Shown: piece after piece, positions 2,034 to 61,824 of the stretch
Layout of the letters: every line of letters starts with the position of its first letter
Position numbering within the stretch: position 1 is the first letter of the stretch
Origin: Bacteroidota bacterium
GTDB lineage: Bacteria > Bacteroidota > Bacteroidia > Bacteroidales > JAIOZK01
DNA length: 64,000 nucleotides
Direction of reading: 5' to 3'
NCBI GenBank assembly: GCA_034521425.1
Contig: JAXHMP010000001.1
Coordinates: forward strand, 2,779,182 to 2,843,181
Translations under genes and position numbers: made by a program
Notes under the pieces: generated by a model
Told to the model about the DNA's origin: nothing
Seen by the model: only the letters and a program-made list of their open reading frames with translations
Database searches by the model: none

Positions 2034-2134
2034 GATTTCGGATTCTGGATTTCGGATTTCGGATTGGCCTTTGCTTAAGTTACTGATTTTATCTAATACC
2101 TTAGTGTCACCCTGAGCGAAGTCGAAGGGTCGGG
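2034..2134. repeat. Left arm of ~100-bp inverted repeat (GGATTTC STR + gtcaccctgagcgaagtcgaagggtcgg)
   Basis: The reverse complement of 2603-2704 aligns with this arm along its length: GGATTYCGG units, ggattggccYttgcttaa.., ttagtcaccctgagcgaagtcgaagggtcgg. Confidence 0.85.
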
Positions 2135-2190
2135 TTTCGGATTTCGGATTTTTATACATAGCAACTTAGCAAGCATAGCACCTAGAAAAC

Positions 2191-2580
2191 ATGAAAATAA
2201 ATAATTTTGAAGATTTGGAGGTCTGGCAGTTAGCCAGGGATTTAAGCAAAACAATTTATAAATATTCCTCATCAAGCCCCTTTAATAAAGATTTTAGATT
2301 CAGAAGTCAAATTTTAAGTTCATCGGGATCGATAATGGATAATATTGCGGAAGGTTTTGAAAGGGATGGCAACAAAGAGTTCATTCAATTCTTAAGCATA
2401 TCGAAAGGCTCTTGCGGTGAAACCCGTTCCCAAAGCTACAGAGCTTTCGATTTTAAATATATTAATCAGGATCAACTCAACGAACTCCTTACGAAAACAA
2501 AACAATTAAGCAATTCTCTGGGAGGGTTTATTAAGTATCTAAAAAGCAGCGAAATAAAAGGAAAAAAATTTAAAAATTAA
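2191..2580 (+). CDS. Four-helix-bundle protein (23S rRNA intervening-sequence protein family, PF05635/TIGR02436-like)
   Basis: 129-aa intact ORF with family hallmarks (FEDLEVWQLARDL.., IMDNIAEGFER.., ISKGSCGETRSQ). Sits in the loop between inverted arms 2034-2134 and 2603-2704. Confidence 0.85.
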   Translation: MKINNFEDLEVWQLARDLSKTIYKYSSSSPFNKDFRFRSQILSSSGSIMDNIAEGFERDGNKEFIQFLSISKGSCGETRSQSYRAFDFKYINQDQLNELLTKTKQLSNSLGGFIKYLKSSEIKGKKFKN

Positions 2581-2602
2581 ACTAAGTTACAATTTGCGAT
2601 GA

Positions 2603-2704
2603 GCCAATCCGACCCTTCGACTTCGCTCAGGGTGACTAAGGAGTAAGTTAAATTTAGTAATTTAAGCAAGGGCCAATCCGGAATTCGGAATCCGGAATCC
2701 GAAA
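2603..2704. repeat. Right arm of the inverted repeat around the four-helix-bundle ORF
   Basis: ccaatccgacccttcgacttcgctcagggtgactaagg...ggccaatccggaattcggaatccggaatccgaaac is the reverse complement of the left arm. Confidence 0.85.
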
Positions 2705-2739: not shown

Positions 2740-3341
2740 ATGAGTAAGCCAACAAACATCCACCCCGTATTCCACCAGATCCTCACCCGCGCCGACAAGG
2801 AGAAGTTCCTCAGGCAGCGCTCCTGTGTGATCTGGATGACGGGGCTGAGCGGCAGCGGCAAAACCACCATTGCCCGCCACATCGAAATTGAACTGAACAA
2901 AAGAGGTCACCTCACCCAGGTGCTCGACGGCGACAACATCCGCACCGGCATCAACAACAACCTGGGCTTTACCGAGGAGGACCGCATCGAGAACATCCGG
3001 CGCATCGCCGAAGTCTCCAAACTCTTCGTCGACTGCGGGGTGATCTGCATCAACAGCTTCATCAGTCCTACGAAGGAGATCCGACACCTGGCCATGGACA
3101 TCATCGGCAGGGAAGACTTCATCGAGGTATTCGTAAACGCCCCCTGGAAGTCTGCGAGCAGCGTGATGTAAAAGGCCTGTACAAAAAAGCCCGGGAAGGG
3201 AAAATTAAGAATTTTACGGGCATTGACGCCCCCTTCGAAAAACCCGAAAAAGCACAAATCGAACTCCTGACCGGAAAACAAAGCATCGCAGAAAGCATGG
3301 AAGTGGCCCTGGAATACATCATTCCACGGGTGACTTATTGA
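2740..3341 (+). pseudogene. cysC: Adenylyl-sulfate (APS) kinase with one apparent frameshift
   Basis: P-loop GLSGSGKTT plus LDGDNIR, FISP motifs. The frame breaks at a C5 run (3140-3144). With one more C the ORF reads ..[40 protein letters not shown] ending at 3341. This could be a sequencing error or a recombination scar. Confidence 0.85.
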
Positions 3342-3586
3342 ATTCCTGTCTGCCGACAGGCAGGAATCCCGATGAGGCCGAATCGGGACAACAACACAAA
3401 ACAACAAACCAATTAGATCAATTAGATTAATTCGATGACAAAAAAATCCGATGATCATCATCTAATTCAACGAATTAAACGCCGCACACATCGTAATGAA
3501 ATGAAGATAGGGAATGAATGATTGGATGGATGGATGGATGGATGAATGGATGGATGGATGAATGAATGGATGGATGAATGAATGAA
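3338..3586. repeat. Composite spacer module, copy 1 (hairpins + AACAAAC + 'aattagatcaattagattaattcgatgac' block + GGATGRATG STR)
   Basis: Direct repeat of 4542-4873: ttgaattcctgtctgccgacaggcaggaatcccgatgaggccgaatcgggac...cgaattaaacgcc...ggatggatgaatg array. Confidence 0.85.
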
Positions 3587-3652
3587 AAAGTGCCTAACAA
3601 TCACACAATCCCGGGCTGATCATTTTTATTATCTTTGAATAAAGCCTTAGAA

Positions 3653-3914
3653 ATGAAAACCATAAAATACATAGTTTATAAAGATGGAAAACACTACGTT
3701 TCGCAAAGCTTAAACGTGGATATTTCAAGTTTCGGGAATACGATTGAAGAAGCAACATGAATTCTACTTTAAAAGCCAAAGAGGAAGCCATCAAAAATAT
3801 GTGAACAACAGCAAAACTGTGATTGTTCCCGCAAACAAAAAAGAGATACCCCTTGGCACATTGAATTCAATCAGCCGAAGTACAGACCATACCGACTTGC
3901 AAAAACACAAATAA
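3653..3914 (+). pseudogene. HicB/HicA-like toxin-antitoxin remnant
   Basis: MKTIKYIVYKDGKHYVSQSLNVDISSFGNTIEEAT* is HicB-N-like. It is followed by FYFKSQRGSHQKYVNNSKTVIVPANKKEIPLGTLNSISR (HicA-like core). Both parts are truncated or fused. Confidence 0.4.
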
Positions 3915-3927
3915 CTTATTAACTTTG
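3897..3927 (+). promoter_or_regulatory. Bacteroidetes-type promoter (TTG - 20 nt - TAACTTTG)
   Basis: TTG at 3897-3899 and TAACTTTG at 3920-3927, about 37 nt upstream of the DUF4160 start. The same TAACTTTG module occurs before three other cassettes. Confidence 0.5.
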
Positions 3928-3963
3928 TTAAAAGCAGATGTTTTAATAAATTACTTAAAAACT

Positions 3964-4200
3964 ATGCCTGAGATTTTTCGGAAATTTGGATTTGTTTTTT
4001 TCTTTTACTCAAATGAAGGACAAGAACCCATGCATGTGCATGTGAGAAAGGCTGGTGGTTTTGCAAAATTCTGGATCGAACCGATAGAACTGGAATTTTC
4101 CCAGGGAATGAAAGTTGGGGATATTAAAAAGGCTGAAGAACTCGTTTACGAGTATACAGAACTTATAAAAGATAAGTGGAATGAAGTACATGGTAGCTGA
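3964..4200 (+). CDS. DUF4160-family small protein
   Basis: MPEIFRKFGFVFFFYSNEGQEPMHVHVRKAGGFAKFWIEP.. matches the DUF4160 pattern. Overlaps its DUF2442 partner. The ORF-track start at 3925 is probably too early. Confidence 0.7.
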   Translation: MPEIFRKFGFVFFFYSNEGQEPMHVHVRKAGGFAKFWIEPIELEFSQGMKVGDIKKAEELVYEYTELIKDKWNEVHGS

Positions 4201-4435
4201 ACTAATGTTTAAGGCAGTGGAAGCCTGGTATGAAAAGGGTAAAATATGTATCATGTTATCTGATAATAAAGAAATCAGGTTTCCGGTTACTTTAAATAAA
4301 GAATTACGAAATGCTCCTGTTGATAAGCTGGCAAATATTGAATTAATTTGTGATGGTACAGGACTGCATTGGCCTGATCTGGATGAGGATTTATCAGTTA
4401 CGGGAATAATTGAAGGAAGATATGGCAAAGCTTGA
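4181..4435 (+). CDS. DUF2442-family small protein (partner of DUF4160)
   Basis: ..GLHWPDLDEDLSVTGIIEG.. is the typical DUF2442 C-terminus. Overlapping gene pair. Confidence 0.7.
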   Translation: MKYMVAELMFKAVEAWYEKGKICIMLSDNKEIRFPVTLNKELRNAPVDKLANIELICDGTGLHWPDLDEDLSVTGIIEGRYGKA

Positions 4436-4541: not shown

Positions 4542-4873
4542 TTGAATTCCTGTCTGCCGACAGGCAGGAATCCCGATGAGGCCGAATCGGGACAACAACA
4601 CAAAACAACAAACCAATTAGATCAATTAGATTAATTAGATGACAAAAAAATCCGATGATCATCATCTAATTCAACGAATTAAACGCCACACCAATCCTAA
4701 TGAAATGAAGATAGGGAATGAATGATTGGATGGATGAATGAATGGATGAATGATTGGATGGATGAATGAATGGATGAATGATTGGATGAATGGATGGATG
4801 GATGGATGATTGGATGAATGGATGGATGGATGGATGATTGGATGAATGGATGGATGGATGGATGAATGGATGA
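4542..4873. repeat. Composite spacer module, copy 2 (longer GGATGRATG STR)
   Basis: Same module as 3338-3586, with a ~160-bp ggatgaatg/ggatggatg array at 4716-4873. Confidence 0.85.
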
Positions 4874-5250: not shown

Positions 5251-5448
5251 TTATACAAACATACAGTATAGCCCCAACACAAAACATTTACACTGAGTCA
5301 TTCGACAGGCTCATGATAAACTCTGCCGAAGTGACAAACAAATTAGATCAATTAGATTAATTCGATCAATTCGATGATAAAAATCATCTGATGACAAAAA
5401 AAACTGATTAATGTTTAGTGTCTTTAACTTAAGATGAATACCAAACAC

Positions 5449-6150: not shown

Positions 6151-6290
6151 CTGAGTCTGCCGAAGGGCCTGTCCTGAGCCTGCCGAAGGGCCTGTCCTGA
6201 GCCTGCCGAAGGGCCTGTCCTGAGCCTGCCGAAGGGCCTGTCCTGAGCCTGCCGAAGGGCTCATGATAAACTTTGCCGAAGTAACAAACA
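6151..6290. repeat. 21-bp tandem repeat ctgagcctgccgaagggcctgtc (x5) ending in ..gctcatgataaactttgccgaagtaac
   Basis: Five head-to-tail copies. Shorter versions at 5285-5335, 14928-14965 and 24270-24335. Confidence 0.9.
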
Positions 6291-8536: not shown

Positions 8537-8700
8537 ATGGATGATTGGATGGATGGATGTGGTAGAATCATACAATCATACAATCATACAATCCCGTCTC
8601 ACCTCAGGCGAGACGAGGATCCTCGACTAAAAGTCGGGACCATACAACCATACAACCAACCAATCATACAACCATACAACCATACAAACCTTCAATTCGT
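8537..8700. repeat. GGATGGATG STR + CATACAAT STR + double hairpin (second copy of the 111-245 module)
   Basis: cccgtctcacctcaggcgagacgaggatcctcgactaaaagtcgggacc at 8593-8641, flanked by catacaa(t/c)c units. Confidence 0.8.
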
Positions 8701-21443: not shown

Positions 21444-21788
21444 ATGACCACCTGGAAAACCTTTGAAGAAATCGAATGCTGGCAACTAGCCAGGAGCTTC
21501 TGTACAGAGATATATAAAAATATCACGCAGTATAAAGGCTTGAATACTGACTATGCATTAAAAAGATCAAATCGAATCGGTCCTCTGGTAGCATCATGGA
21601 TAACATCGCAGAAGGATACGGATGGAGGCGGCACCAAAGAATTATTAGCATCCAGCATAGCAAAAGGCAGCGCAAGCGAATCTCGTTCTCAACTATACAG
21701 GGTTCTTGACCGGCAATACATTGATCAAGAGAAACATCAAGAACTACAGGAAAAAACACGCGAACTAATTAACAAAATCGTGGACTGA
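21444..21788 (+). pseudogene. Four-helix-bundle (23S rRNA IVS protein family) gene, frameshifted
   Basis: TFEEIECWQLARSFCTEIYK.. and ..KGSASESRSQLYRVLDRQYIDQE.. The middle segment (expected ..SIMDNIAEGY..) is out of frame. Flanked by GTTTGTT/AACAAAC arrays. Confidence 0.7.
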
Positions 21789-21880: not shown

Positions 21881-22106
21881 AACAACAAACAACAAACAAA
21901 AAACAAACAAACAAAACTACAACAAACAAACAAACAGAAACAAACAAACCAAACCAAACAAACAACAAACAACAAACAACAAACAAACAAACAAACAAAC
22001 AACAAACAACAAACAAACAAACAAACAAACAAACAAACAACAAACAAACAAACAAACAAACAAACAAACAAACAAACAAACAAACAAACAAACAAACAAC
22101 AAACAA
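21881..22106. repeat. AACAAAC heptamer STR (~225 bp)
   Basis: The longest array of a heptamer that recurs in dozens of spacers. It creates spurious 100-aa ORFs on both strands. Confidence 0.95.
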
Positions 22107-22188
22107 ATGTCCAATCACGGCATATCCCAAATACTCTTATCAACTGATCATTGAAACATTAAGCAATGAGGAGCAGATACTCCAGGCA

Positions 22189-47641: not shown

Positions 47642-47781
47642 ATGAATAAGATTGCACTAATTACAGGAATAACCGGTCAGGACGGCGCCTACCTAGCCGA
47701 ATACCTGATCAAAAAAGGATACATTGTCCATGGGATCAAAAAGAAGAGCTTCCCTGTTCAGATACCGACAGGATGGATCAT
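47642..47781 (+). pseudogene. gmd: GDP-mannose 4,6-dehydratase 5' fragment, copy 1 (most diverged)
   Basis: [34 protein letters not shown].. breaks at ..ggatcat|gaggtaacgaagc. Confidence 0.85.
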
Positions 47782-48419
47782 GAGGTAACGAAGCTATGAG
47801 AGGTGAGAGGTGAGAGGTGAGAAGTGAGAGGTGAGAGGTGAGAGGTGAGAAGTGAGAGGTGAGAGGTGAGAGGGTGAGAGGTGAGCCTGCTAACTTCATA
47901 ATTTAAAGTACTAACACCATGAGTCAACTTGGAGATAGCGATGAGAGATGAGTGGTGAGAGGTGAGACTGCTAACTTCATAATTTAAAATACTAACACCA
48001 TGAGTTCAAATTGGAGATAGCGATGGAGATGAGGGTGAGAGGTGAGACTGCTAACTTCATAATTTAAAATACTAACACCATGAGTCAGAAATGGAAATAG
48101 CAGTGAGAGATGAGAGGTGAGAGATGAGATTTGAGAGATGAGAGGTGAGAAATGAGCTAGCCAAGTTCAATATGTAAAACATCAACACCATGAGTTAGAA
48201 TGGAAATAGCGGTGAGAGATGAGCGGTGAGAGATGAGATCTAGACTAAGCGTGCAGATAGATATAAACATCAAACCGCCCCTGTCCGAATACGAGAGATG
48301 AGAGGTGAGAATGATTGAAGATGAGCTCACGAGAGAATGCAGTAAGTGACCGACATATGTCAAACTCTCATTCTGCCAGTTTCACCACTCATGAAAGATC
48401 GCTCATAACTTAAAAAACC
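47782..48419. repeat. GAGAGGT STR interleaved with ~60-bp core units that each contain the four-helix-bundle gene start
   Basis: Four units of ..ctgctaacttcataatttaaaatactaacaccATGAGTCAGAA..ggaaatagcg + (gagaggt/gagagat)n. Confidence 0.85.
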
Positions 48420-48794
48420 ATGAGTCAGATTAACAGTTTTAGGGATTTGATTGTATTTAAAAAAGCCTATGAAGTCGGAATGGAAATTTTTGAGATAACA
48501 AAGAACTTTCCCAAGGAAGAAAAGTATTCGCTTACAGATCAGATTCGAAGGTCTTCAAGATCTGTCACATCAAACATAGCCGAAGCCTGGGCTAAAAGGA
48601 TATATGTCAAATCTTTTGTCAGCAAGCTGAGTGATTCACTCGGCGAGAGAATACGAATCAGAGGTCTGGTTGGACTATTCCAGAGATTGCCGATCATTAA
48701 TACAGAAACCTACAATTCACTGATAAACAAATACAACGAAGTCAGGAAAATGCTAATCGCAATGATCAATAGTCCAGAAAAATTCTGCAAGTGA
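48420..48794 (+). CDS. Four-helix-bundle protein (IVS-protein family) with a compensated double frameshift
   Basis: 124 aa, about 90% identical to 50555-50929. The exception is 17 codons (ERIRIRGLVGLFQRLPII versus EEYESEVWLDYSRDCQYI) caused by +1 (near 48647) and -1 (near 48692) indels. Possibly non-functional. Confidence 0.65.
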   Translation: MSQINSFRDLIVFKKAYEVGMEIFEITKNFPKEEKYSLTDQIRRSSRSVTSNIAEAWAKRIYVKSFVSKLSDSLGERIRIRGLVGLFQRLPIINTETYNSLINKYNEVRKMLIAMINSPEKFCK

Positions 48795-48822
48795 GTACAT
48801 CTTAAAAATAAACGACCCCCTA

Positions 48823-48868
48823 ACTCACTACTCACCTCTCACTACTCATCTCTCATCTCTCAAATCTC
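48823..48868. repeat. Inverted STR (CTCACYW / ACCTCTC)
   Basis: Complement orientation of the GAGAGGT family, immediately 3' of the ORF. Confidence 0.85.
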
Positions 48869-49100
48869 AATAACCTCAAACATTGCTGAAGCCTGGGCGA
48901 AGAAAATATATGTCAAATCTTTTGTCAGCAAGCTGAGCGATTCACTCGGCGAGGAATACGAATCAGAAGTCTGGCTGGACTATTCCAGAGATTGCCAATA
49001 CATTAATACAGAAACCTACAATTCACTGATAAACAAATACAACGAAGTCAGAAAAATGCTAATCGCCATGATGAACAACCCAGAAAAGTTCTGCAAATAG
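48869..49100 (+). pseudogene. Four-helix-bundle gene, 3' two-thirds fragment
   Basis: ..SNIAEAWAKKIYVKSFVSKLSDSLGEEYESEVWLDYSRDCQYINTETYNSLINKYNEVRKMLIAMMNNPEKFCK* has no 5' end. Confidence 0.8.
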
Positions 49101-49104
49101 CAAA

Positions 49105-49158
49105 ACTCACCTCTCATCTCTCATCTCTCATCGCTCACCTCTCACCGCTCACCGCTCA
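49105..49158. repeat. Inverted STR (CTCAYCK)
   Basis: ctcacctctcatctctcatctctcatcgctcacctctcaccgctcaccgctc. Confidence 0.85.
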
Positions 49159-49823: not shown

Positions 49824-50554
<731 letters not shown>

Positions 50555-50929
50555 ATGAGTCAGATTAATAGTTTTAGGGATTTGATTGTATTTAAAAAAG
50601 CCTATGAAGTCGGAATGGAAATTTTTGAAATAACCAAACATTTTCCAAAAGAAGAAAAATATTCGTTAACCGATCAAATTCGAAGATCATCCAGATCAGT
50701 AAGCTCAAACATAGCCGAAGCTTGGGCCAAAAGGATTTATGTCAAATCTTTTGTCAGCAAGCTGAGTGATTCACTCGGCGAAGAATACGAATCAGAGGTC
50801 TGGCTGGACTATTCCAGAGATTGCCAATATATTAATACCGATACCTACAATTCATTGATAAACAAATATGACGAAGTCAGAAAAATGCTAATCGCTATGA
50901 TCAATAGTCCAGAAAAATTCTGCAAGTAA
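50555..50929 (+). CDS. Four-helix-bundle protein (23S rRNA IVS protein family)
   Basis: Intact 124 aa: FRDLIVFKKAYEVGMEIFEITKHFPKEEKYSLTDQIRRSSRSVSSNIAEAWAKR.. Confidence 0.85.
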   Translation: MSQINSFRDLIVFKKAYEVGMEIFEITKHFPKEEKYSLTDQIRRSSRSVSSNIAEAWAKRIYVKSFVSKLSDSLGEEYESEVWLDYSRDCQYINTDTYNSLINKYDEVRKMLIAMINSPEKFCK

Positions 50930-50956
50930 GAACATCTAAGAACAAACGATCCCCTA

Positions 50957-51073
50957 ACTCATAACTCATCTCTCACCACTCACCACTCACCGCTCACTAC
51001 TCATCTCTCACCTCTCATCTCTCACTACTCACTACTCACTACTCACCGCTCACCTCTCACCGCTCACCTCTCA
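50957..51073. repeat. Inverted STR (CTCAYYR heptamers)
   Basis: ctcataactcatctctcaccactcaccactcaccgctcactactcatctctc... is the complement of the left-arm heptamers. Confidence 0.9.
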
Positions 51074-51138: not shown

Positions 51139-52366
51139 ATGCAAAAAACCGCACTAATAACCGGCATCACCGGCCAGGATGGCGCCTACCTCGCCGAGTA
51201 CCTGATCAAAAAAGGATACATTGTCCATGGGATCAAAAGAAGAGCTTCTCTGTTCAACACAGACAGGATCGACCACCTTTACCAGGATCCACATGTGGAG
51301 GACCGGAACTTCATCCTGCATTACGGCGACATGACCGACAGCATGAACCTCACCCGCATCATACAGGAAGTGCAGCCGGATGAGATCTATAACCTGGCTG
51401 CACAAAGCCATGTAGGCGTGAGTTTTGAAACGGCAGAGTATACGGCCAATGCAGATGGTGTGGGTACGCTCAGGATATTGGAAGCAGTCCGTTTGCTTGA
51501 TTTAACGAAGAAAACCAGGATCTACCAGGCTTCTACTTCCGAGCTCTATGGCATGGTGCAGGAGGTGCCACAAAGCGAGAAAACGCCTTTTTATCCAAGA
51601 TCGCCTTACGGGGTGGCCAAGATGTATGCCTACTGGATCACGGTCAACTACCGGGAGGCCTATGGCATGCATGCCAGCAATGGCATCCTGTTCAATCATG
51701 AGTCGCCCATACGGGGCGAAACCTTCGTCACCCGCAAGATCACCCGGGCCATCGCCAGGATCGCCCTGGGCATGCAGGAAAAGCTCTACCTCGGCAACCT
51801 CTCCGCCCAACGCGACTGGGGCCACGCCAAGGATTATGTCAAAGCCATGTACCTCATCCTCCAGCAAGACGAGCCGGATGATTATGTCATCGCCACCGGC
51901 ATCACCACACCGGTCAGAGACTTTGTGCGGAAAGCCTGTGCAAACCTGGGAATAGAGGTCTCTTTCGGAGAAGGAAAGGAGGAAAAGGGCTACATCACCG
52001 CCATCGATGAAACAACATTCAAAGAAAAAGTCGGGAGCAAGTATCTAGAAAAAATCAGATCCCATATCGCCCCTTCGCCCAGTCGCCCCATCGCCCCATC
52101 GCCCAGTCGCCCCATCGCCCCCTCGCCCCCTCGCCCCCTCGCCCCTTCGCAAGCTATTGTTGCGGTGGATCCACGCGTATTTCCGTCCAACAGAAGTGGA
52201 ACTCCTCATCGGAGACCCGACCAAAGCCAATACCAAACTGGGCTGGAAACCGGAATACGACCTGGATGGCTTGATCAAGGACATGATGCAATCGGATATT
52301 GAGTTGATGAAAAGGGATAGTTATTTGCGGGATGGGGGGTATCGGGTGATGAATTACTTTGAATAG
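51139..52366 (+). pseudogene. gmd: GDP-mannose 4,6-dehydratase, full length but with a repeat insertion and one frameshift
   Basis: Canonical GMD sequence throughout (..[32 protein letters not shown]..). An extra G near 52177 splits ..AVDPR|[17 protein letters not shown].. into two frames. This may be a sequencing error. Confidence 0.85.
52066..52150. repeat. TCGCCCC(N) STR inside gmd, in frame ([27 protein letters not shown])
   Basis: About 11 units. Located in the variable loop just before the conserved ..IVAVDPRYFRP.. segment. Confidence 0.85.
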
Positions 52367-52410: not shown

Positions 52411-52806
52411 ATGGCTGAGATTGTATATAAAGAAGAAAGTTACAGAATCATTGGTGTATGCATGAAGGTTCATAAGACCCTTGGTGAGGAGTTTCTTGAG
52501 GCAGTTTATCAAGAAGCATTGGAAAAAGAGTTCAGGGAGCAGCAAATACCATTTGAGAGTCAGAAAAAGCTATCATTGTTTTATGATGGTCAGCAACTCA
52601 AAAAATATTACAAAGCAGACTTTCTTTGTTTTGATAAAATTATTGTTGAAATAAAGTCAGTGAGTTTTTTGAACAATGATTTCAGAAGGACTTTGTTCAA
52701 CTATCTTAAAGCTACTCAATTAAAACTTGGATTATTGATCAACTTTGGGAATAAATCTCTTGAATATAAACGCATCCTCAATCCAAGCGTCCCCCCTTCG
52801 CATTAA
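52411..52806 (+). CDS. GxxExxY protein (PD-(D/E)xK nuclease-like, TIGR04256-type)
   Basis: ..IGVCMKVHKTLGEEFLEAVYQEALEKEF.. contains the GxxExxY signature, plus ..DFLCFDKIIVEIKS.. Flanked by inverted GCGAATT-type repeats (52368-52405 and 52795-52842). Confidence 0.8.
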   Translation: MAEIVYKEESYRIIGVCMKVHKTLGEEFLEAVYQEALEKEFREQQIPFESQKKLSLFYDGQQLKKYYKADFLCFDKIIVEIKSVSFLNNDFRRTLFNYLKATQLKLGLLINFGNKSLEYKRILNPSVPPSH

Positions 52807-54041: not shown

Positions 54042-54155
54042 GAAGCGGTGAGAGGTGAGACTGCTAACTTCATAATTTAAAATACTAACACCATGAGTCA
54101 GAATTGAAATAGCGATGAGAGATGAGTGGTGAGAGGTGAGACTGCTAAATTCATA
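54042..54155. repeat. GAGAGGT STR + core units (left arm of the next four-helix-bundle cassette)
   Basis: Starts 6 nt after the fcl stop: gcggtgagaggtgagactgctaacttcataatttaaaatactaacaccatgagtcagaattg.. Confidence 0.85.
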
Positions 54156-54324
54156 AATGAACTACCCAGAGGCAACCCTGCGGGGTATCATTATGAAACA
54201 TTCATTTGATTCGCCCCAAGGGGCGGGGAATATTACCCACGAGATCCCTCGACAAGCTCGGGATCAGTTCGACTTTGCTTTTTCAGTTCGCTATCGCTCC
54301 TAAAAAATCAGTCTCACTGATTTA
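54156..54324. mobile_element. 169-bp MITE, copy 2, inserted inside a core unit
   Basis: Splits ..ttcataa|tttaaaatactaacacc.. The uninterrupted version occurs more than 8 times elsewhere. No target duplication is evident. Confidence 0.8.
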
Positions 54325-54463
54325 AAATACTAACACCATGAGTCAGATTAATAGTTTTAGGGATTTGATTGTGTTTCAGAAAGCCTATGAAGTTTCGATG
54401 GAAATATTTGAAGTAACCAAGAAATTCCCAAAAGAAGAAAAATATTCCTTAACTGATCAAATT

Positions 54464-54718
54464 CACCCTGTCAAATAATTCAATATTATTATGGATTTTT
54501 ATTACGTATATATTCTTCAAAGTGAACTTGATAATAAATTTTATACAGGTTATACTAAAAATATTGAATTAAGATTTGAGCAACATCAAAAAGGGCAAGT
54601 TCACCCTGTGAAATAAAATTAAAAATTTTAATGCGTAGCATTATTTCACAGGGTAAAAAACTCATTATGGGAAAATGTTTATTAAAAACAGGCTCAAATC
54701 TTATTTGACAGGGTAAAG
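54464..54718. mobile_element. 255-bp element with 13-bp terminal inverted repeats (ACCCTGTCAAATA) carrying a truncated GIY-YIG ORF and a nested mini-hairpin element
   Basis: caccctgtcaaata...tatttgacagggt. The inner accctgtgaaata..tatttcacagggt element lies at 54602-54657. A related left end occurs at 63011. Confidence 0.75.
54491..54615 (+). pseudogene. GIY-YIG nuclease-family gene, N-terminal 37 codons only
   Basis: MDFYYVYILQSELDNKFYTGYTKNIELRFEQHQKG.. contains the YVYIL..FYTGYT (GIY..YIG) motif. Truncated by the nested hairpin element. Confidence 0.7.
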
Positions 54719-54989
54719 CAGATCATCCAGGTCAATAACCTCAAACATTGCTGAAGCCTGGGCGAAGAAAATATATGTCAAATCTTTTGTCAGCAAGCTG
54801 AGTGATTCACTCGGCGAGGAATACGAATCAGAGGTCTGGCTGGACTATTCCAGGGATTGCCAATATATTAATTCCGATACCTACAATTCATTGATAAACA
54901 AATATGACGAAGTCAGAAAGATGCTCATCGCAATGATCAATAGCCCCGAAAAATTCTGCAAGTAAGAACATCTAAGAACAAACGATCCC

Positions 54990-55178
54990 TAACTCACTAC
55001 TCACCGCTCATCTCTCATCTCTCACCGCTCATCTCTCATCTCTCATCTCTCACCGCTCATCTCTCATCTCTCATCTCTCACCGCTCATCTCTCATCTCTC
55101 ATCTCTCACCGCTCATCTCTCATCTCTCATCTCTCACCGCTCATCTCTCATCTCTCACCGCTCATCTCTCATCTCTCA
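54990..55178. repeat. Higher-order STR (28-bp = 4 x 7: ctcaccg ctcatct ctcatct ctcatct)
   Basis: About 6.5 units. Inverse orientation to the GAGMGRT array at 56666-56757 on the other side of the ATPase gene. Confidence 0.9.
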
Positions 55179-55324: not shown

Positions 55325-56593
55325 ATGAATAAAAAGCCCTACATGCCACGAATATGTGATGCTGATTTGCAGCTTGCACTGCAATCATCAGGGGCGGTAT
55401 TAATAGAAGGAGCTAAATGGTGTGGGAAAACAAGTACATCAATGAATGCCTCGCGCAGTGTGTTGTTTATGCAGGATCCGGATAAAACAAGCGCATACCT
55501 GGCTATGGCAGACACAAAACCATCATTACTGCTTAAGGGAGATACTCCACGATTGATAGATGAGTGGCAAATGGCTCCGGTATTATGGGATGCTGTCAGG
55601 TTTGAAGTTGATAAAAGAGCAGAAATGGGGCAGTTTATTTTAACCGGGTCTGCTGTTCCCTCCGACAATGTTACTGCTCACACAGGTACAGGCAGGATAT
55701 CCCGTTTGCTGTTGCGCCCTATGAGTCTTTTTGAATCGGGGGAATCAAATGGAGAAATATCCTTGCGTGCTTTGTTCAATGGTGATCTTACAGTAGAGGC
55801 CATTTCAGATTTAAGCATAGAAGACATTGCTTTTGTTCTGTGCAGAGGAGGATGGCCGGCAAGTGTTCAGCAGAAAAAGGCAGCAGCTTTACGAATGGCA
55901 GTGGATTATGTGGAAGCTGTGATCAATCATGATGTGTCGAGGGTTGATGATGTTGAGAAGAATCCTGAAAGGGTTCGTATGTTGTTACGGTCATTGGCAC
56001 GTAACATTTCGACAATTGCCACTTATCAGACGATTAAAGATGATATGGAAGCAACCGATATAACTATATCCGATAAAACAATAAGTTCGTATATGAATGC
56101 GCTGCGCAGGATTTTTTTAGTTGAAGATTTGCCGGCATGGGCACCATCATTGCGCTCAAAAACAGCTATTCGAACTTCCCCCAAAAGGCATTTTGTAGAT
56201 CCATCCATTGCTACAGCTGTATTAAGGTCGAATCCGGAAGGAATATTAAACGATTTTCAATATTTTGGGTTCCTGTTTGAATCCTTGTGTACACGCGACA
56301 TCAGGGTGTATGCACAAACAAACGATGGCGATGTTTTTCATTATCGTGATAAAAGTGGTCTGGAAGCTGATTTAATTATACAACTCCACAATGGCAGATG
56401 GGCTGCAATTGAGATAAAACTGGGTCAAAAACAAATAGACTATGCCGCTGAAAATCTTTTAAAGCTTAAAAGCCAGATTGATAAGGATAAAATGGGTAAA
56501 CCATCTTTTTTGATGGTTCTTACAGGCGGGGAATACGCTTACCGGCGTGAAGATGGTGTTTTAGTTGTGCCCATTGCATGTTTGAAACCATAA
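55325..56593 (+). CDS. AAA ATPase with DUF4143-type C-terminal domain
   Basis: Intact 422 aa. Walker [10 protein letters not shown], ..RLIDEWQ.. (Walker B-like). Architecture typical of orphan Bacteroidetes ATP-binding proteins. Confidence 0.7.
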
Positions 56594-56665: not shown

Positions 56666-56757
<92 letters not shown>

Positions 56758-58515: not shown

Positions 58516-59836
58516 AATCTTCAAATTTTTTGTAAACTTACGAATTATTGTAACAATGGTTACAGTAATGGCTGTTACTTTTAACCGATCAAATACGCAG
58601 ATCATCCAGGTCAATAACCTCAATTATTGCCGAGACCTGGGCTACCACACCCGTCAGGCTGAACACCCCACCCGTCAGGCTGAGCGAAGTCGAAGCCCCA
58701 TAACTTGCTCACCAACAACGCATCTCGACTGCGCTCGATGTGACTGAGAGACAGACAATCAAAAAAATGATGTAACGATTGAGGGATTGCACGATATAAC
58801 GATATTCGAAGTAGGGCCCGAGCAAATCGCTAAGTCGTTAAATCGCCCAATCGATCAATCGCGCAATAAAAAAATGTTTTGCGAAAAGGCTGAGCACCTC
58901 ACCCGTCAGGCTGAGCACCCCACCCGTCAGGCTGAACACCCCTCCCGTCAGGCTGAGCACCGCGCCCGTCAGGCTGAGCGGAGTCGAAGCCCCGTAAATA
59001 CCTCACCAACAGCGCATCTCGACTGCGCTCGATGTGACTGACAGACAGACAATCAAAAAAAAATGATGTAACGATTGAGGGATTGCACGATATAACGATA
59101 TTCGAAGTACGGCCCGAGCAAACCGCTAAGTCGTTAAATCGCCCAATCGATCAATCGCGCAATAAAAAAATGTTTTGCGAAAAGGCTGAGCACCCCGCCC
59201 GTCAGGCTGAGCGAAGTCGAAGCCCCGTAACTTGCTCACTAACAGCGCATCTCGACTGCGCTCGATGTGACTGACAGACCGCATTCACCAACAAAAAAAC
59301 GGCTGCAACGATTCAGTATTCAGGCATGTAACGAGTACCTCAACAGTCAGGCTGAGCACACCACCCGTCAGGCTGAGCACCGCACCCGTCAGGCTGAGCG
59401 AAGTCGAAGCCCCGTAACTTGCTCACCAACAGCGCATCTCGACTGCGCTCGATGTGACTGAGAGACAGACAATCTGATGTAACGATTGAGGGATTGCACG
59501 AATAACGATATTCGAAGAGCCCGAGCAAATCGCTAAGTCGTTAAATCGCCCAATCGATCAATCGCGTAAAAAATGTTTTGCGAGCAGCACCGTCAGGCTG
59601 AGCACCGCCCCCGTCAGGCTGAGCACCGCTCCCGTCAGGCTGAGCGGAGTCGAAGCCCCGTAAATACCTCACCAACAGCGCATCTCGACTGCGCTCGATG
59701 TGACTGAGAGACAGACAATCAAAAAAATGATGTAACGATTGAGGGATTGCACGATATAACGATATTCGAATTGGGTACGAGCCATGATAGCAAAATGCAT
59801 TAACTATCTTTGTAAAATAGCTATTGAAAATGCGTA

Positions 59837-60001
59837 ATGACAATTAAAAAAGGCACAGAAAAGGATCAAATAAAAGCTATACTTGAGAAAATCAGGAGAA
59901 AAAGGGTAAGAAGAAAAACTGATTTAAGCAAATATTGCGGTGTATTATCGTTGAACGAAGACCCTTTGGAATTACAAAAAAAGTGGAGAGATGAATGGTG
60001 A
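59837..60001 (+). CDS. Putative antitoxin of PIN toxin
   Basis: 54 aa (MTIKKGTEKDQIKAILEKIRR...DPLELQKKWRDEW*). Overlaps the PIN start by 11 nt. Confidence 0.5.
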   Translation: MTIKKGTEKDQIKAILEKIRRKRVRRKTDLSKYCGVLSLNEDPLELQKKWRDEW

Positions 60002-60372
60002 TCAGCTTTTTCTTGATACGAATATCATTCTGTATTTTCTGAATGGTGATAAATCGCTATTGCCAAATTTAGAAGAAAAGCAATTATTCATTTCTTTTAT
60101 CACTCAGATGGAGTTGTTGAGTTTTAAAGAAATAACTAAAAAGGAAATAAATTTAATAGAGGGTTTCCTTACAAATTGTCTGATTATTGAAATGTCTTTA
60201 CGGATTAAAGAAAATGCAATTTTTGTTCGCAGGAAATATGGTTTAAAGTTGCCTGATGCCATTATTGCCGGGTCTTCAATATGTCCTGAACGTTCCACTA
60301 TTTTCTGCTGATAAAGCAATGTCCAGAATTTCAGAAATTGATCTAATTTATTATCAGTTTGATACAGAATGA
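59991..60372 (+). pseudogene. PIN-domain toxin, C-terminal frameshift
   Basis: MNGDQLFLDTNIILYFL.. (N-terminal D), ..SFITQMELLSF.., ..LKLPDAIIAG.. The frame shifts near 60275 and then reads ..NVPLFSADKAMSRISEIDLIYYQF. Confidence 0.65.
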
Positions 60373-61824
60373 GGGAAAGGAAAAATCCGGAATCCGAATA
60401 GCTCAAAGTCACCGAGTGAATAATCCGTCACATTAAGCTTGATATGACACTATTTTGTTTACGTTCTCCTGAGTTGAGGCGATATTACAATACCCCAAAA
60501 ATCGCTAAATTGCTATGTCGTGCAATCGCCCAATCGATCAATCGCGCAATAAAAAAATGTTTTGCGAAAAGGCTGAGCACCGCACCCGTCAAACTGAACA
60601 CCGCCCCCGTCAGGCTGAGCACCCCACCCGTCAGGCTGAGCGGAGTCGAAGCCCCGTAAATACCTAACCAACAGCGCATCTCGACTGCGCTCGATGTGAC
60701 TGAGAGACAAGGTTCACCAACATCAAAAACGCTAATAAGCCATTGTCAACCACCAACCACCAACCACCAACCACCAACCACCAACTACCAACCACCAACT
60801 ACTCATCTCAAATTCTGCGATCATCTGCGCAAAATAACATCCTTTTGCGACTTTGCGGCTTTGCGTGAAAAATTACAAGACACGCCTTGCAAACACACGC
60901 CAGCTGAGCACCGCACCCGTCAGGCTGAGCACCCCACCCGTCAGGCTGAGCGGAGTCGAAGCCCCGTAAACACCTCACCAACAGCGCATCTCGACTGCGC
61001 TCGATGTGACTGAGAGACAGACAATCAAAAAAATGATGTAACGATTGAGGGATTGCACGATATAACGATATTCGAAGTACGGCCCGAGCAAACCGCTAAG
61101 TCGTTAAATCGCCCAATCGATCAATCGCGCAATAAAAAAATGTTTTGCGAAAAGGCTGAGCACCCCGCCCGTCAGGCTGAACACCGCTCCCGTCAGGCTG
61201 AGCGTAGTCGAAGCCCCGTAACTTGCTCACCAACAGCGCATCTCGACTGCGCTCGATGTGACTGAGAGACAAGGTTCACCAACATCAAAAACGCTAATAA
61301 GCCATTGCCAACCACCAACCACCAACCACCAACTACCAACCACCAACTACTCATCTCAAATTCTGCGATCATCTGTGCAAAATAACATCCTTATGCGACT
61401 TTGCGGCTTTGCGTGAAAAATTACAAGACACGCCTTGCAAACACACGCCAGCTGAGCACCGCACCCGTCAGGCTGATCACCCCTCCCGTCAGGCTGAGCG
61501 GAGTCGAAGCCCAGTAAATAGCTCACCAACAGCGCATCTCGACTGCGCTCGATGTGACTGAGAGACAAGGTTCACCAACATCAAAAACGCTAATAAGCCA
61601 TTGTCAACCACCAACCACCAACTACCAACCACCAACTACTCATCTCAAATTCTGCGATCATCTGTGCAAAATAACATCCTTATGCGACTTTGCGGCTTTG
61701 CGTGAAAAATTACACACCCAAAATCGCTAAATCCTGCCTGCCGGCAGGCAAGGCGCTATGTCGTGCAATCTTTCAATCGAACAATCAAAAAAAATGATGT
61801 ATCTTTGAATAAGCAACTTAAGTT

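Follow-up and report, generated by a model that had tools for sequence, protein, structure and literature searches.

The 64,000-nt stretch of the Bacteroidota contig JAXHMP010000001.1 analyzed here (the window) contains a sulfate-assimilation operon in which a small gene, enclosed by a long inverted repeat, lies at the junction of a permease gene with cysC. We suggest that this module is similar to the intervening sequences (IVSs) of ribosomal RNA: a promoterless gene for a four-helix-bundle (4HB) protein would lie in the loop of a heptamer-built stem, and the transcript would be cut at that stem by RNase III, a reading drawn by analogy with rRNA IVSs to which we assign a probability of about 0.5. 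Sequence comparisons indicate that the architecture is general, operon-embedded and insertion-like; excision at the RNA level is proposed by analogy, and the family-wide evidence on it is neutral.

An earlier note on this DNA had proposed an inverted repeat of about 100 bp around the small gene, and this repeat proved to be real. In a gapped alignment, positions 2030-2143 are complementary to 2597-2709 over ~105 columns, with 91 matches, 13 mismatches, a 1-nt gap and a 2-nt gap, and the arm pair begins at the permease stop codon. A repeat search returned two ungapped blocks, 2036-2105/2635-2704 (70 nt, 83%) and 2106-2136/2606-2636 (31 nt, 97%). The left and right arms matched each other by blastn with an E value of 3e-16, and a 24-nt core occurs twice in the window, both times in the arms (0 expected). 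When 2025-2715 was folded as RNA, the arms paired near-continuously, with a predicted energy of -238.9 kcal/mol versus -149.6 +/- 5.8 for shuffled sequences (z -15.5), which never came close; the possibility raised in the earlier note that the arms might not be complementary is thereby contradicted. Neither arm formed a local hairpin when folded separately (z -0.2 and -0.35). The two strands lie ~470 nt apart and enclose the whole gene, and their stem is the longest and most stable among the 81 loci examined. The nine transition mismatches of the stem are all G:U on the + strand, none being C.A, and folding the sense strand yields -238.9 kcal/mol versus -217.3 for the antisense strand, a difference of 21.6 kcal/mol.

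All parts of the module lie on the + strand. The outer part of the left arm (2030-2065) consists of the permease stop codon and ~4.6 tandem GGATTYY heptamers, called as a period-7 array at 2034-2065 by Tandem Repeats Finder (TRF), and it pairs with 2675-2709; GGATTYC heptamers are present, as the earlier note had indicated. It is followed by a non-repetitive, locus-specific core (2066-2129; GGCCTTTGCTTAAG...CACCCTGAGCGAAGTCGAAGGGTC), complementary to 2609-2672, and by inner heptamers (2130-2151; TCGGATT x3 by TRF), of which the first unit only has a partner on the right side. A 39-nt leader with no recognizable promoter (2152-2190) precedes the open reading frame (ORF; 2191-2580), and a short post-stop spacer (2581-2596), not paired to the left arm in the fold, separates the ORF from the right arm (2597-2709), which contains the reverse complement of the core (2606-2672) and then AATCCGR heptamers (2675-2701 by TRF). 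The focal arms are thus a common type of heptamer pair to which an inverted duplication found at this locus, the ~65-nt core, has been added. A search of the whole window against Rfam gave no family, rRNA included, at the gathering threshold, and at E <= 10 only noise was returned for 1950-2800.

The ORF between the arms lies on the same strand as the permease gene and cysC, as the earlier note had described, and encodes a 129-aa protein. Its assignment to PF05635/TIGR02436 was borne out, with 120.5 bits for PF05635 (cut-off 33.8; profile positions 1-105 of 106) and 115.6 bits for TIGR02436 (cut-off 24). The protein is 100% identical to an NCBI protein from a Bacteroidota metagenome-assembled genome, and a search for PF05635/TIGR02436 homologues gave at least 8000 matches, all significant. 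Its AlphaFold model (predicted local distance difference test score, pLDDT, 91.6) has four helices, and the best Foldseek matches were 2GSC (Xcc0516), 2RLD (BT_0352) and 4DWL, which is Avd, the accessory protein of diversity-generating retroelements (DGRs). Template-modeling (TM) scores against 2GSC were 0.76-0.82 (query-normalized) and 0.88-0.92 (target-normalized), and phmmer matched the focal protein to 2GSC with an E value of 3.7e-7. Against Avd, the TM scores were 0.74 (query) and 0.88 (target) at a sequence identity of 10-14%, so the fold kinship with Avd that had been proposed is upheld; the Avd model NF033474 gave no match for the focal protein. No PADLOC defense-system model matched the 4HB proteins or the GxxExxY proteins described below. 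A conserved family motif, GxxRxxxSxxxNxxE, is ascribed to Lin 2006 where that work is quoted in PMC3936711, and its S, N and E residues are found in the focal protein (SIMDNIAE). Its residue at the basic position of the motif is L, where each of the 15 close homologues compared has R, K or H, and a neighboring conserved D is replaced by S. These two substitutions hint, at the sequence level, at relaxed constraint on the protein in the focal lineage, and the ORF may be decaying.

Upstream of the module lies a CitMHS/SLC13-type (Na-sulfate-symporter) permease gene with two TrkA_C domains (248-2032, +; PF03600 208 bits, PF02080, PF00939), whose TGA stop codon (2030-2032) sits in the base of the stem, where the pairs of the fold start at 2030. 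The downstream gene, cysC, encodes adenosine 5'-phosphosulfate kinase (2740-3340, +; PF01583 144.9 bits); it starts 31 nt past the stem and has an apparent frameshift near 3140. The earlier note had considered an independent promoter and terminator for the small ORF, and none was found by a scan: no promoter- or terminator-like site rose above chance in 1900-2850, and the leader contains no sigma-70-like or TAnnTTTG motif. Upstream of 4HB genes in general, the Bacteroidetes -7 box (TAnnTTTG) is depleted, with 2 occurrences in 81 loci versus 6.9 in shuffles. Because no promoter is seen upstream, the ORF is probably expressed by read-through, and hence both arms and the ORF would be on one RNA. 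Two other readings of the structure were tried and dropped: the arms as an intrinsic terminator, which would need a U tract that they do not have, and an integron attC cassette, since the arms pair across the ORF rather than forming local attC hairpins and there is no integrase.

In the mechanism that we propose, read-through from the permease gene would place both arms and the ORF on one RNA, and the arms would then pair into a duplex of ~100 bp. RNase III would cut this duplex, as it does the stems of rRNA IVSs, and the cut would release the ORF-bearing loop and leave the permease message apart from that of cysC. What this lineage seems to keep is the stem, not the protein. Slippage and arm-to-arm copying at the DNA level would account in part for the origin and homogenization of the heptamer arrays, and at the focal locus at least, selection may also see pairing in the sense transcript.

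Our survey took in 80 loci that carry close homologues (53-67% identity) on one-genome-per-species contigs, mostly of Bacteroidota. In 46 of the 76 usable loci, the flanks of the 4HB gene form an inverted repeat whose score exceeds that of the best among 20 shuffles by over 10 points, and the energies of the flank duplexes beat those of shuffles (p = 7.6e-12). Together with the orientation of the neighboring genes given below, these results bear out the earlier proposal that the stem-plus-ORF module is general and not rRNA-specific. What had been overlooked is that the arms are basically tandem heptamer arrays, and that these are the conserved feature. Period 7 is specifically enriched at 4HB genes, with a mean best score of 10.8 upstream and 12.1 downstream versus 4.1 in controls, other periods being at control level, and, with a minimum length of 14 nt, period-7 arrays are found no farther than 150 nt upstream in 65% and downstream in 60% of homologous loci versus 7% of distal controls. 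The upstream unit is RTTYNRR, the last three positions of which vary by locus (GTTTCGG, GTTCCGT, GGTTGCG, GTTTATC, ATTTCAA and others). In 25 of 25 loci with strict arrays on both sides, the downstream unit corresponds to the upstream one reverse-complemented, with a mean of 0.8 mismatches versus 2.66 between loci; the arms therefore covary.

The arrays have a median length of 31 nt, or ~4-5 units. By their median positions, the 5' array starts 7 nt past the upstream stop codon and ends 20 nt before the ATG, a gap that is too short for a promoter, and the 3' array starts 15 nt past the stop codon of the ORF and ends 11 nt before the next start codon. Because of these distances, module and arrays together exactly fill an otherwise tight operon junction. 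The closest homologues of the focal protein are flanked by heptamers as well; these are other heptamers, without the focal core, and arms differ between loci even where the proteins are 70-72% identical. The design extends to a 4HB gene on a Nostoc plasmid, with (GGGAAAA)n/(CCCTTTT)n arms, to a like arrangement on a Riemerella replicon and to inverted heptamer arrays at the 4HB gene of a Paceibacterota contig (L077). No literature linking 4HB genes to inverted heptamer arrays was found in a search that covered older and subscription journals thinly.

The regularity of the heptamers could also be explained if they, with their conserved RTTY and variable NRR, were RNA or DNA binding sites for the encoded 4HB protein, which as a pentamer would regulate its own gene or control the flanking cistrons; the duplex would then be secondary or even antagonistic. 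We find this explanation doubtful. In its favor, period 7 is strict, four bases are conserved across loci, and the median array holds ~4-5 units; the fold family is pentameric, Avd lies within the RNA-protein complex of DGR particles (2GSC, 4DWL, 8UB7-8UBE), and the inverted layout would place two arrays on one oligomer. The variable positions, however, differ even among close homologues, so that recognition could involve RTTY alone, and the sites are putative, being recognized by sequence pattern. Different gene families do appear to have their own repeats, with a period of ~10 for GxxExxY genes (n=4) and TGAGAGR units for a distinct 4HB subfamily of the window, and heptamers just upstream of start codons were previously proposed as sites for post-transcriptional regulators (PMC4679880). 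On the other hand, hairpins that contain no ORF exist, the arms persist at one locus despite deletion of the ORF (L085, below), and most of the focal arms is non-repetitive core.

Of 68 loci, 57 have both neighbors on the same strand as the 4HB gene, and only one has the ORF opposed to both. This bias is a point against an inverton, in which recombination between the arms would flip the ORF segment and so switch read-through into the downstream genes, in the manner of the phase-variable polysaccharide promoters of Bacteroides. The segment between the inverted repeats is indeed short, and several modules are located in polysaccharide loci (gmd/fcl in the window, wzc/rmlA at L001), but no invertase or recombinase gene is adjacent, no promoter was found inside, and we know of no inverton whose repeats resemble arms of up to 100 bp made of tandem repeats. 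We regard an inverton as very improbable.

At eight loci, the 4HB gene is found between sufB and sufC (L029, L043, L054, L062, L064, L070, L073 and L075), in genera that include Algoriphagus, Flavobacterium, Leptobacterium and Ohtaekwangia, with ATTTGAA-type arms that vary by species. The orthologues at this junction in two Algoriphagus genomes have a nonsynonymous-to-synonymous ratio (dN/dS) of 0.087, indicating strong purifying selection; here, unlike in the focal lineage, a functional protein is evident.

For the permease-cysC junction itself, loci were found by a scan with the permease. The comparison with relatives that the earlier note had suggested was informative: the junction is nearly or entirely empty, holds hairpins that lack the ORF, or is filled by a different 4HB module. 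The permease and cysC genes are adjacent in L118 (overlapping), L095 (17 nt) and L094/L096 (81 nt), and cysQ stands between them in L105 and L132. L129 and L116 carry a repeat-built hairpin without an ORF (109 nt and 191 nt, respectively), and L091 has the arms of L116 plus a ~430-nt insert. A distant 4HB gene (32% identity) occupies the junction in L130, with GGTTACT x3 / AGTAACC x3 arms that abut the stop codon and the next ATG. To judge from these sequences, the permease-cysC module looks like an insertion. Support for the suggestion that it is a mobile cassette is indirect: there is no target-site duplication at the 2030/2709 borders, and neither the arms nor their core had a further copy in the window and 147 loci searched, apart from the orthologous locus L085. 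As a separate observation, the hairpins of L091 (4780-5515) and L116 (1135-1340) share heptamer arms (AGCTTAG/GGCTGAG), and the extra ~430 nt in the loop of L091 is bounded by a 9-nt direct repeat, TTTTGGCTC, as would follow from an insertion with target duplication or from a deletion between repeats.

L085, from a close relative and on an independent metagenome contig whose permease is 95% identical, holds the focal module with its ORF partly deleted: 246 nt are gone between AAGCAAAACAATT direct repeats, and 47 codons are left. The arms are kept, the left one with a duplicated unit, and folding of the long stem is preserved (z -12.9); its mismatches are G:U versus C.A at 5:1 in the sense strand. 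The extra left-arm unit resembles the reverse complement of the right arm. Outside the window, the core 2066-2129 was found at this locus only, and it is not in the flanks of the closest 4HB homologues. The two modules differ by 1.2% in the left-arm core, 2.6% in the leader (97% identical), 0% in the spacer (measured over 2581-2602, an interval that extends a few bases into the right arm) and 5.9% in the right arm, and by 7-14% in the remnants of the ORF. For the neighboring genes, the synonymous divergence (dS) is 0.585 (permease) and 0.384 (cysC), with third codon positions 62-86% identical, and the intergenic region upstream of the permease gene is 58% identical. Conservation of the arms thus far exceeds that of neutral sites. 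High identity begins at the border of the module, the last 132 nt of the permease gene being 64% identical at third positions. A tract of homologous exchange covering the neighbors was rejected on account of this drop in the permease 3' end; replacement of the module alone remains compatible with the pattern. The pattern would be explained as well by strong constraint on the arms as by a module that postdates the split of the two genomes and was replaced as a whole.

The same locus disposes of the view that the structure arose by chance or as an assembly artefact, such as a foldback chimera in an error-prone long-read assembly. Many genes of the window are frameshifted (cysC, gmd and much of 24-47 kb), suggesting indel errors, but an artefact is ruled out because the independent contig L085 has the same module and arms; analogous structures are present in ~80 other assemblies, and shuffles never came near the fold energy. 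We give this view next to no credence.

A more serious contender, although we think it rather unlikely, is that a non-autonomous mobile cassette, foldback- or MITE-like (miniature inverted-repeat transposable element), has the arms as its terminal inverted repeats, or that the arms belong to a substrate for recombination. Their complementarity would then be kept by concerted evolution through slippage, hairpin template switching and gene conversion, with the RNA stem as a by-product. The variable occupancy of the permease-cysC junction would agree with this explanation, as would the presence in the window of at least eight whole or fragmentary 4HB genes, some of them truncated, nested or duplicated in tandem, the abrupt rise in identity to L085 at the module boundary, and the arm-to-arm copying and unit duplication at L085. 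In addition, array lengths vary freely between the two sides, and mismatches show no family-wide strand bias. A mobile element would, however, be expected to leave other marks: there is no target-site duplication, no transposase or recombinase lies in or beside the modules, arms are unlike between loci even at 70-72% protein identity, and among the window and 147 loci the focal arms recur at the orthologous L085 alone. No tblastn match was obtained in phage genomes, and plasmid matches were limited to 23 records from Riemerella and cyanobacteria. The stability of sufB-4HB-sufC across genera, with its low dN/dS, fits vertical inheritance, and the 9:0 excess of sense G:U pairs in the focal stem also argues against an explanation at the DNA level alone.

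Several results weigh against cutting of an RNA stem as the general explanation. Over all significant arms of the family, transition mismatches are balanced (49 versus 56), and the sense duplex is better than the antisense duplex in only 37 of 81 loci; because there is no family-wide excess of sense G:U pairs, RNA pairing may not maintain most arms. Even the focal 9:0 could come in part from a transcription-linked C-to-T and A-to-G bias of the coding strand. Many arms in the family are short (18-35 nt), AT-rich and ~400 nt apart, which would make them marginal RNase III substrates, and ~1/5 of the homologous loci surveyed have no arms, including four not assigned to Bacteroidota (L009, L023, L040 and L078). 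Copying from arm to arm at the DNA level is visible in the left unit of L085, and other processes acting on DNA show in the unequal array lengths of the two sides, in duplicated units and in the gmd region, where a gmd 5' fragment together with a module is present in tandem copies. The arms of the window and L085 are near-identical at every position, with no compensatory change, and this fits recent replacement of the module equally well. Finally, because of the dN/dS of 0.087 at sufB-sufC, the ORF is not generally dispensable.

The proposed IVS-like reading takes its mechanism from rRNA. In Coxiella, the IVS has a 28-bp terminal stem that RNase III cleaves in the middle, and its ORF, a member of the same family, is in reductive evolution (PMC4990558); PF05635 ORFs have also been reported in 16S/23S rRNA insertions of Candidate Phyla Radiation (CPR) bacteria (bioRxiv 10.1101/2024.02.27.582315). 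The focal module shares with the rRNA IVSs of Leptospira and Coxiella burnetii a protein of the same family encoded in the loop of a terminal-inverted-repeat stem, an ORF that, lacking its own promoter, is transcribed within a host RNA, a sporadic distribution, and the decay of the ORF while the element persists, so that forms with and without it exist. It is not a member of that class, because it lies between protein-coding genes and not in an rRNA gene: the host RNA is the cistron junction of an mRNA, the stem is ~100 bp rather than 28 bp, the arms are built of heptamers, and cutting by RNase III is proposed here by analogy.

Short tandemly repeated repetitive (STRR) heptamers of cyanobacteria form hairpins between co-transcribed genes, e.g. 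hupS-hupL, where a role in transcript stability or translational coupling was suggested (PMC2670836), and intergenic heptamer repeats, often abutting start codons, occur in cyanobacteria, Beggiatoaceae and some Bacteroidetes (PMC2670836, PMC4679880). The focal module likewise has tandem 7-nt units in an intergenic position, and the ORF-less hairpins of L116 and L129 look STRR-like. The STRR reports, in contrast, describe no 4HB genes and no paired inverted arrays enclosing an ORF, and at 4HB loci the heptamer unit is locus-specific and covaries between the two sides. Genes annotated as 23S_rRNA_IVP in cas operons, e.g. between cmr3 and cmr2 of Pleurocapsa, were read as CRISPR-Cas-associated (PMC3936711). 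They too are family members wedged between co-oriented operon genes, but the account in PMC3936711 does not include a description of flanking repeats.

Avd has the same fold as the focal protein, but no reverse transcriptase and no template or variable repeats are near the focal ORF, whose neighbors are the permease gene and cysC. In the early region of phage T7 and in bacterial operons, local hairpins of 20-30 bp between cistrons are cut by RNase III and split polycistronic RNA. For this splitting, PMC4990558 cites Dunn and Studier 1973. The focal stem would similarly be double-stranded between cistrons and would split a polycistronic RNA; it differs in that its strands are far apart and have a whole gene between them. 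MITEs, foldback elements and REPINs (repetitive extragenic palindromic doublets forming hairpins) resemble the module in their inverted ends, the lack of a transposase of their own, their intergenic location and their presence or absence between relatives. Foldback elements also have long arms made of tandem repeats. The 4HB modules differ from all of these in having a conserved ORF, no target duplication, arms that are not shared between copies and no associated transposase that could be identified.

To our knowledge, PF05635/TIGR02436 has gone 30 years without an assigned function beyond the encoding of some members in rRNA IVSs and the kinship with Avd, and no better explanation exists for the heptamers repeated in tandem in cyanobacteria and Bacteroidota. 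The design described here ties this family and the intergenic heptamer repeats together. Should family and repeats form one unit, experiments could address the function of each directly, an annotation rule for such inserts would follow, the presence of these genes in cas, suf and polysaccharide operons would be explained although they play no part in those pathways, and there would be a reason for the frequent contig breaks and false array calls at such places. The focal locus and L085, where the stem was kept and the ORF lost, amount to a natural experiment on which part matters. More speculatively, and with the odds in our view well against it, inverted short-tandem-repeat arrays with a 4HB gene may constitute one ancient, cross-phylum class of self-insulating operon insert, of which ORF-bearing rRNA IVSs and cyanobacterial STRR hairpins would be special or decayed cases; the pentamer, recognizing the RTTY heptamers in the transcript that encodes it, would control formation and cutting of the stem. 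Were this so, the very large PF05635 family would acquire a function in RNA processing.

At least seven further 4HB copies or fragments, which the earlier note did not report, are present in the window. A second type of module lies at 47797-49158 (+), with (TGAGAGR)n arrays and 81-nt units, a 4HB ORF at 48420-48794 and inverted (CTCAYCT)n; within it, a 4HB 3' fragment (48831-49097, +) has an inverted array of its own. The third module, of the same type (49996-51073, +), lies directly upstream of gmd and has arrays, a 4HB ORF at 50555-50929 and inverted arrays. The 4HB copies at 48420 and 50555 gave a weak match to NF033474, below the cut-off. A fourth module follows fcl (54046-55178, +), with arrays, a split 4HB ORF (54338-54466 and 54735-54962) and then a 187-nt (TCTCATC)n array. 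The split (54466-54735) is due to an insert of ~270 nt bounded by inverted TTCACCCTGTCAAATAA-like repeats, which holds a GIY-YIG-like fragment (YVYILQSELDNKFYTGYTKNIELRFEQHQKGQV), a small element nested in the module. A divergent and probably degenerate 4HB ORF is located at 21444-21788 (+; TIGR02436 40.5 bits, partial). Repeats of GTT type and AAC type surround this ORF, and it is directly followed by a 224-nt (AACA)n array (21884-22107).

The 81-nt tandem units (47860-48240, 49996-50520 and 54046-54141) recur several times upstream of the real ORFs, and in each of them TGAGAGR heptamers are joined to the 4HB leader and the ~10 bases that begin the coding sequence (...taacaccATGAGTCAGA...); each unit could encode a mini-ORF of ~10 codons. 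The first ~46 codons of gmd are present three times, as a degraded copy (47700-47785), as an intact fragment (49849-49985) and in the full gene from 51139. The 5' fragments all end at the same junction (...RIDH|GAGGTAACGAAGC), after which heptamer arrays and a 4HB module follow, a pattern that looks like tandem duplication of the gene 5' end plus module or like repeated insertion at one site. The 187-nt (TCTCATC)n array at 54992-55178 and an 89-nt (TGAGAGG)n array at 56666-56754 bracket a 422-aa ORF (55325-56593), which, to judge by eye, may be an AAA/DUF4143-type ATPase. The order CTC...GAG around it is the opposite of the arrangement around 4HB genes, and the first array probably closes one module while the second opens the following one.

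Between gmd and fcl lies a GxxExxY (TIGR04256) ORF (52411-52806, +) with weak inverted repeats of ~10 nt period. Genes of this family (TIGR04256/PDDEXK_3) at 52411-52806, at 526-840 of L011 and at 462-821 of L039 have inverted tandem repeats with a period of ~10 nt, e.g. CCACAGAGNN / NNCTCTGTGG. From these repeat patterns there are hints that GxxExxY is a second small-gene family in operon junctions with its own repeat type, and that repeats are family-specific (n=4).

In the full gmd gene (51139-52302), the C-terminus is frameshifted and a 24-nt unit is repeated x3 in frame (IAPSPSRP), and polysaccharide genes over most of 24000-47000 are fragmented into short ORFs. The frameshifts in cysC, gmd and 24-47 kb are likely to be indel errors of a long-read assembly, the alternative being widespread pseudogenes. 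At 58550-61640, many copies of a ~270-nt repeat, with the translations ...AEHPTRQAERSRSPVTCSPTAHLDCARCD / ...GFDFAQPDG..., are interleaved with (CAACCAC)n heptamers; the FDFAQ-type translated motif recalls that of the GC-rich core of the focal arms (ETRPFDFAQGDT), with no DNA match within 3 mismatches. Closer to the focal locus, a 249-nt direct repeat (3338-3586 and 4542-4790; 95%) ends in (GGATGRAT)n arrays and brackets a small-gene cassette with a HicA/HicB-like pair (3635-3914) and DUF4160/DUF2442-like ORFs (3925-4435). A shorter repeat containing AATTAGATC occurs at 5323, 6411 and 8479, and a 23-nt unit (CTGAGCCTGCCGAAGGGCCTGTC) is repeated 4.8 times at 6151-6260. Upstream of the permease gene (114-241), a GC-rich segment of 48 nt, which contains two small hairpins, has (CATACAAT)n octamer arrays on both sides in direct orientation, and a near copy is present at 8566-8687.

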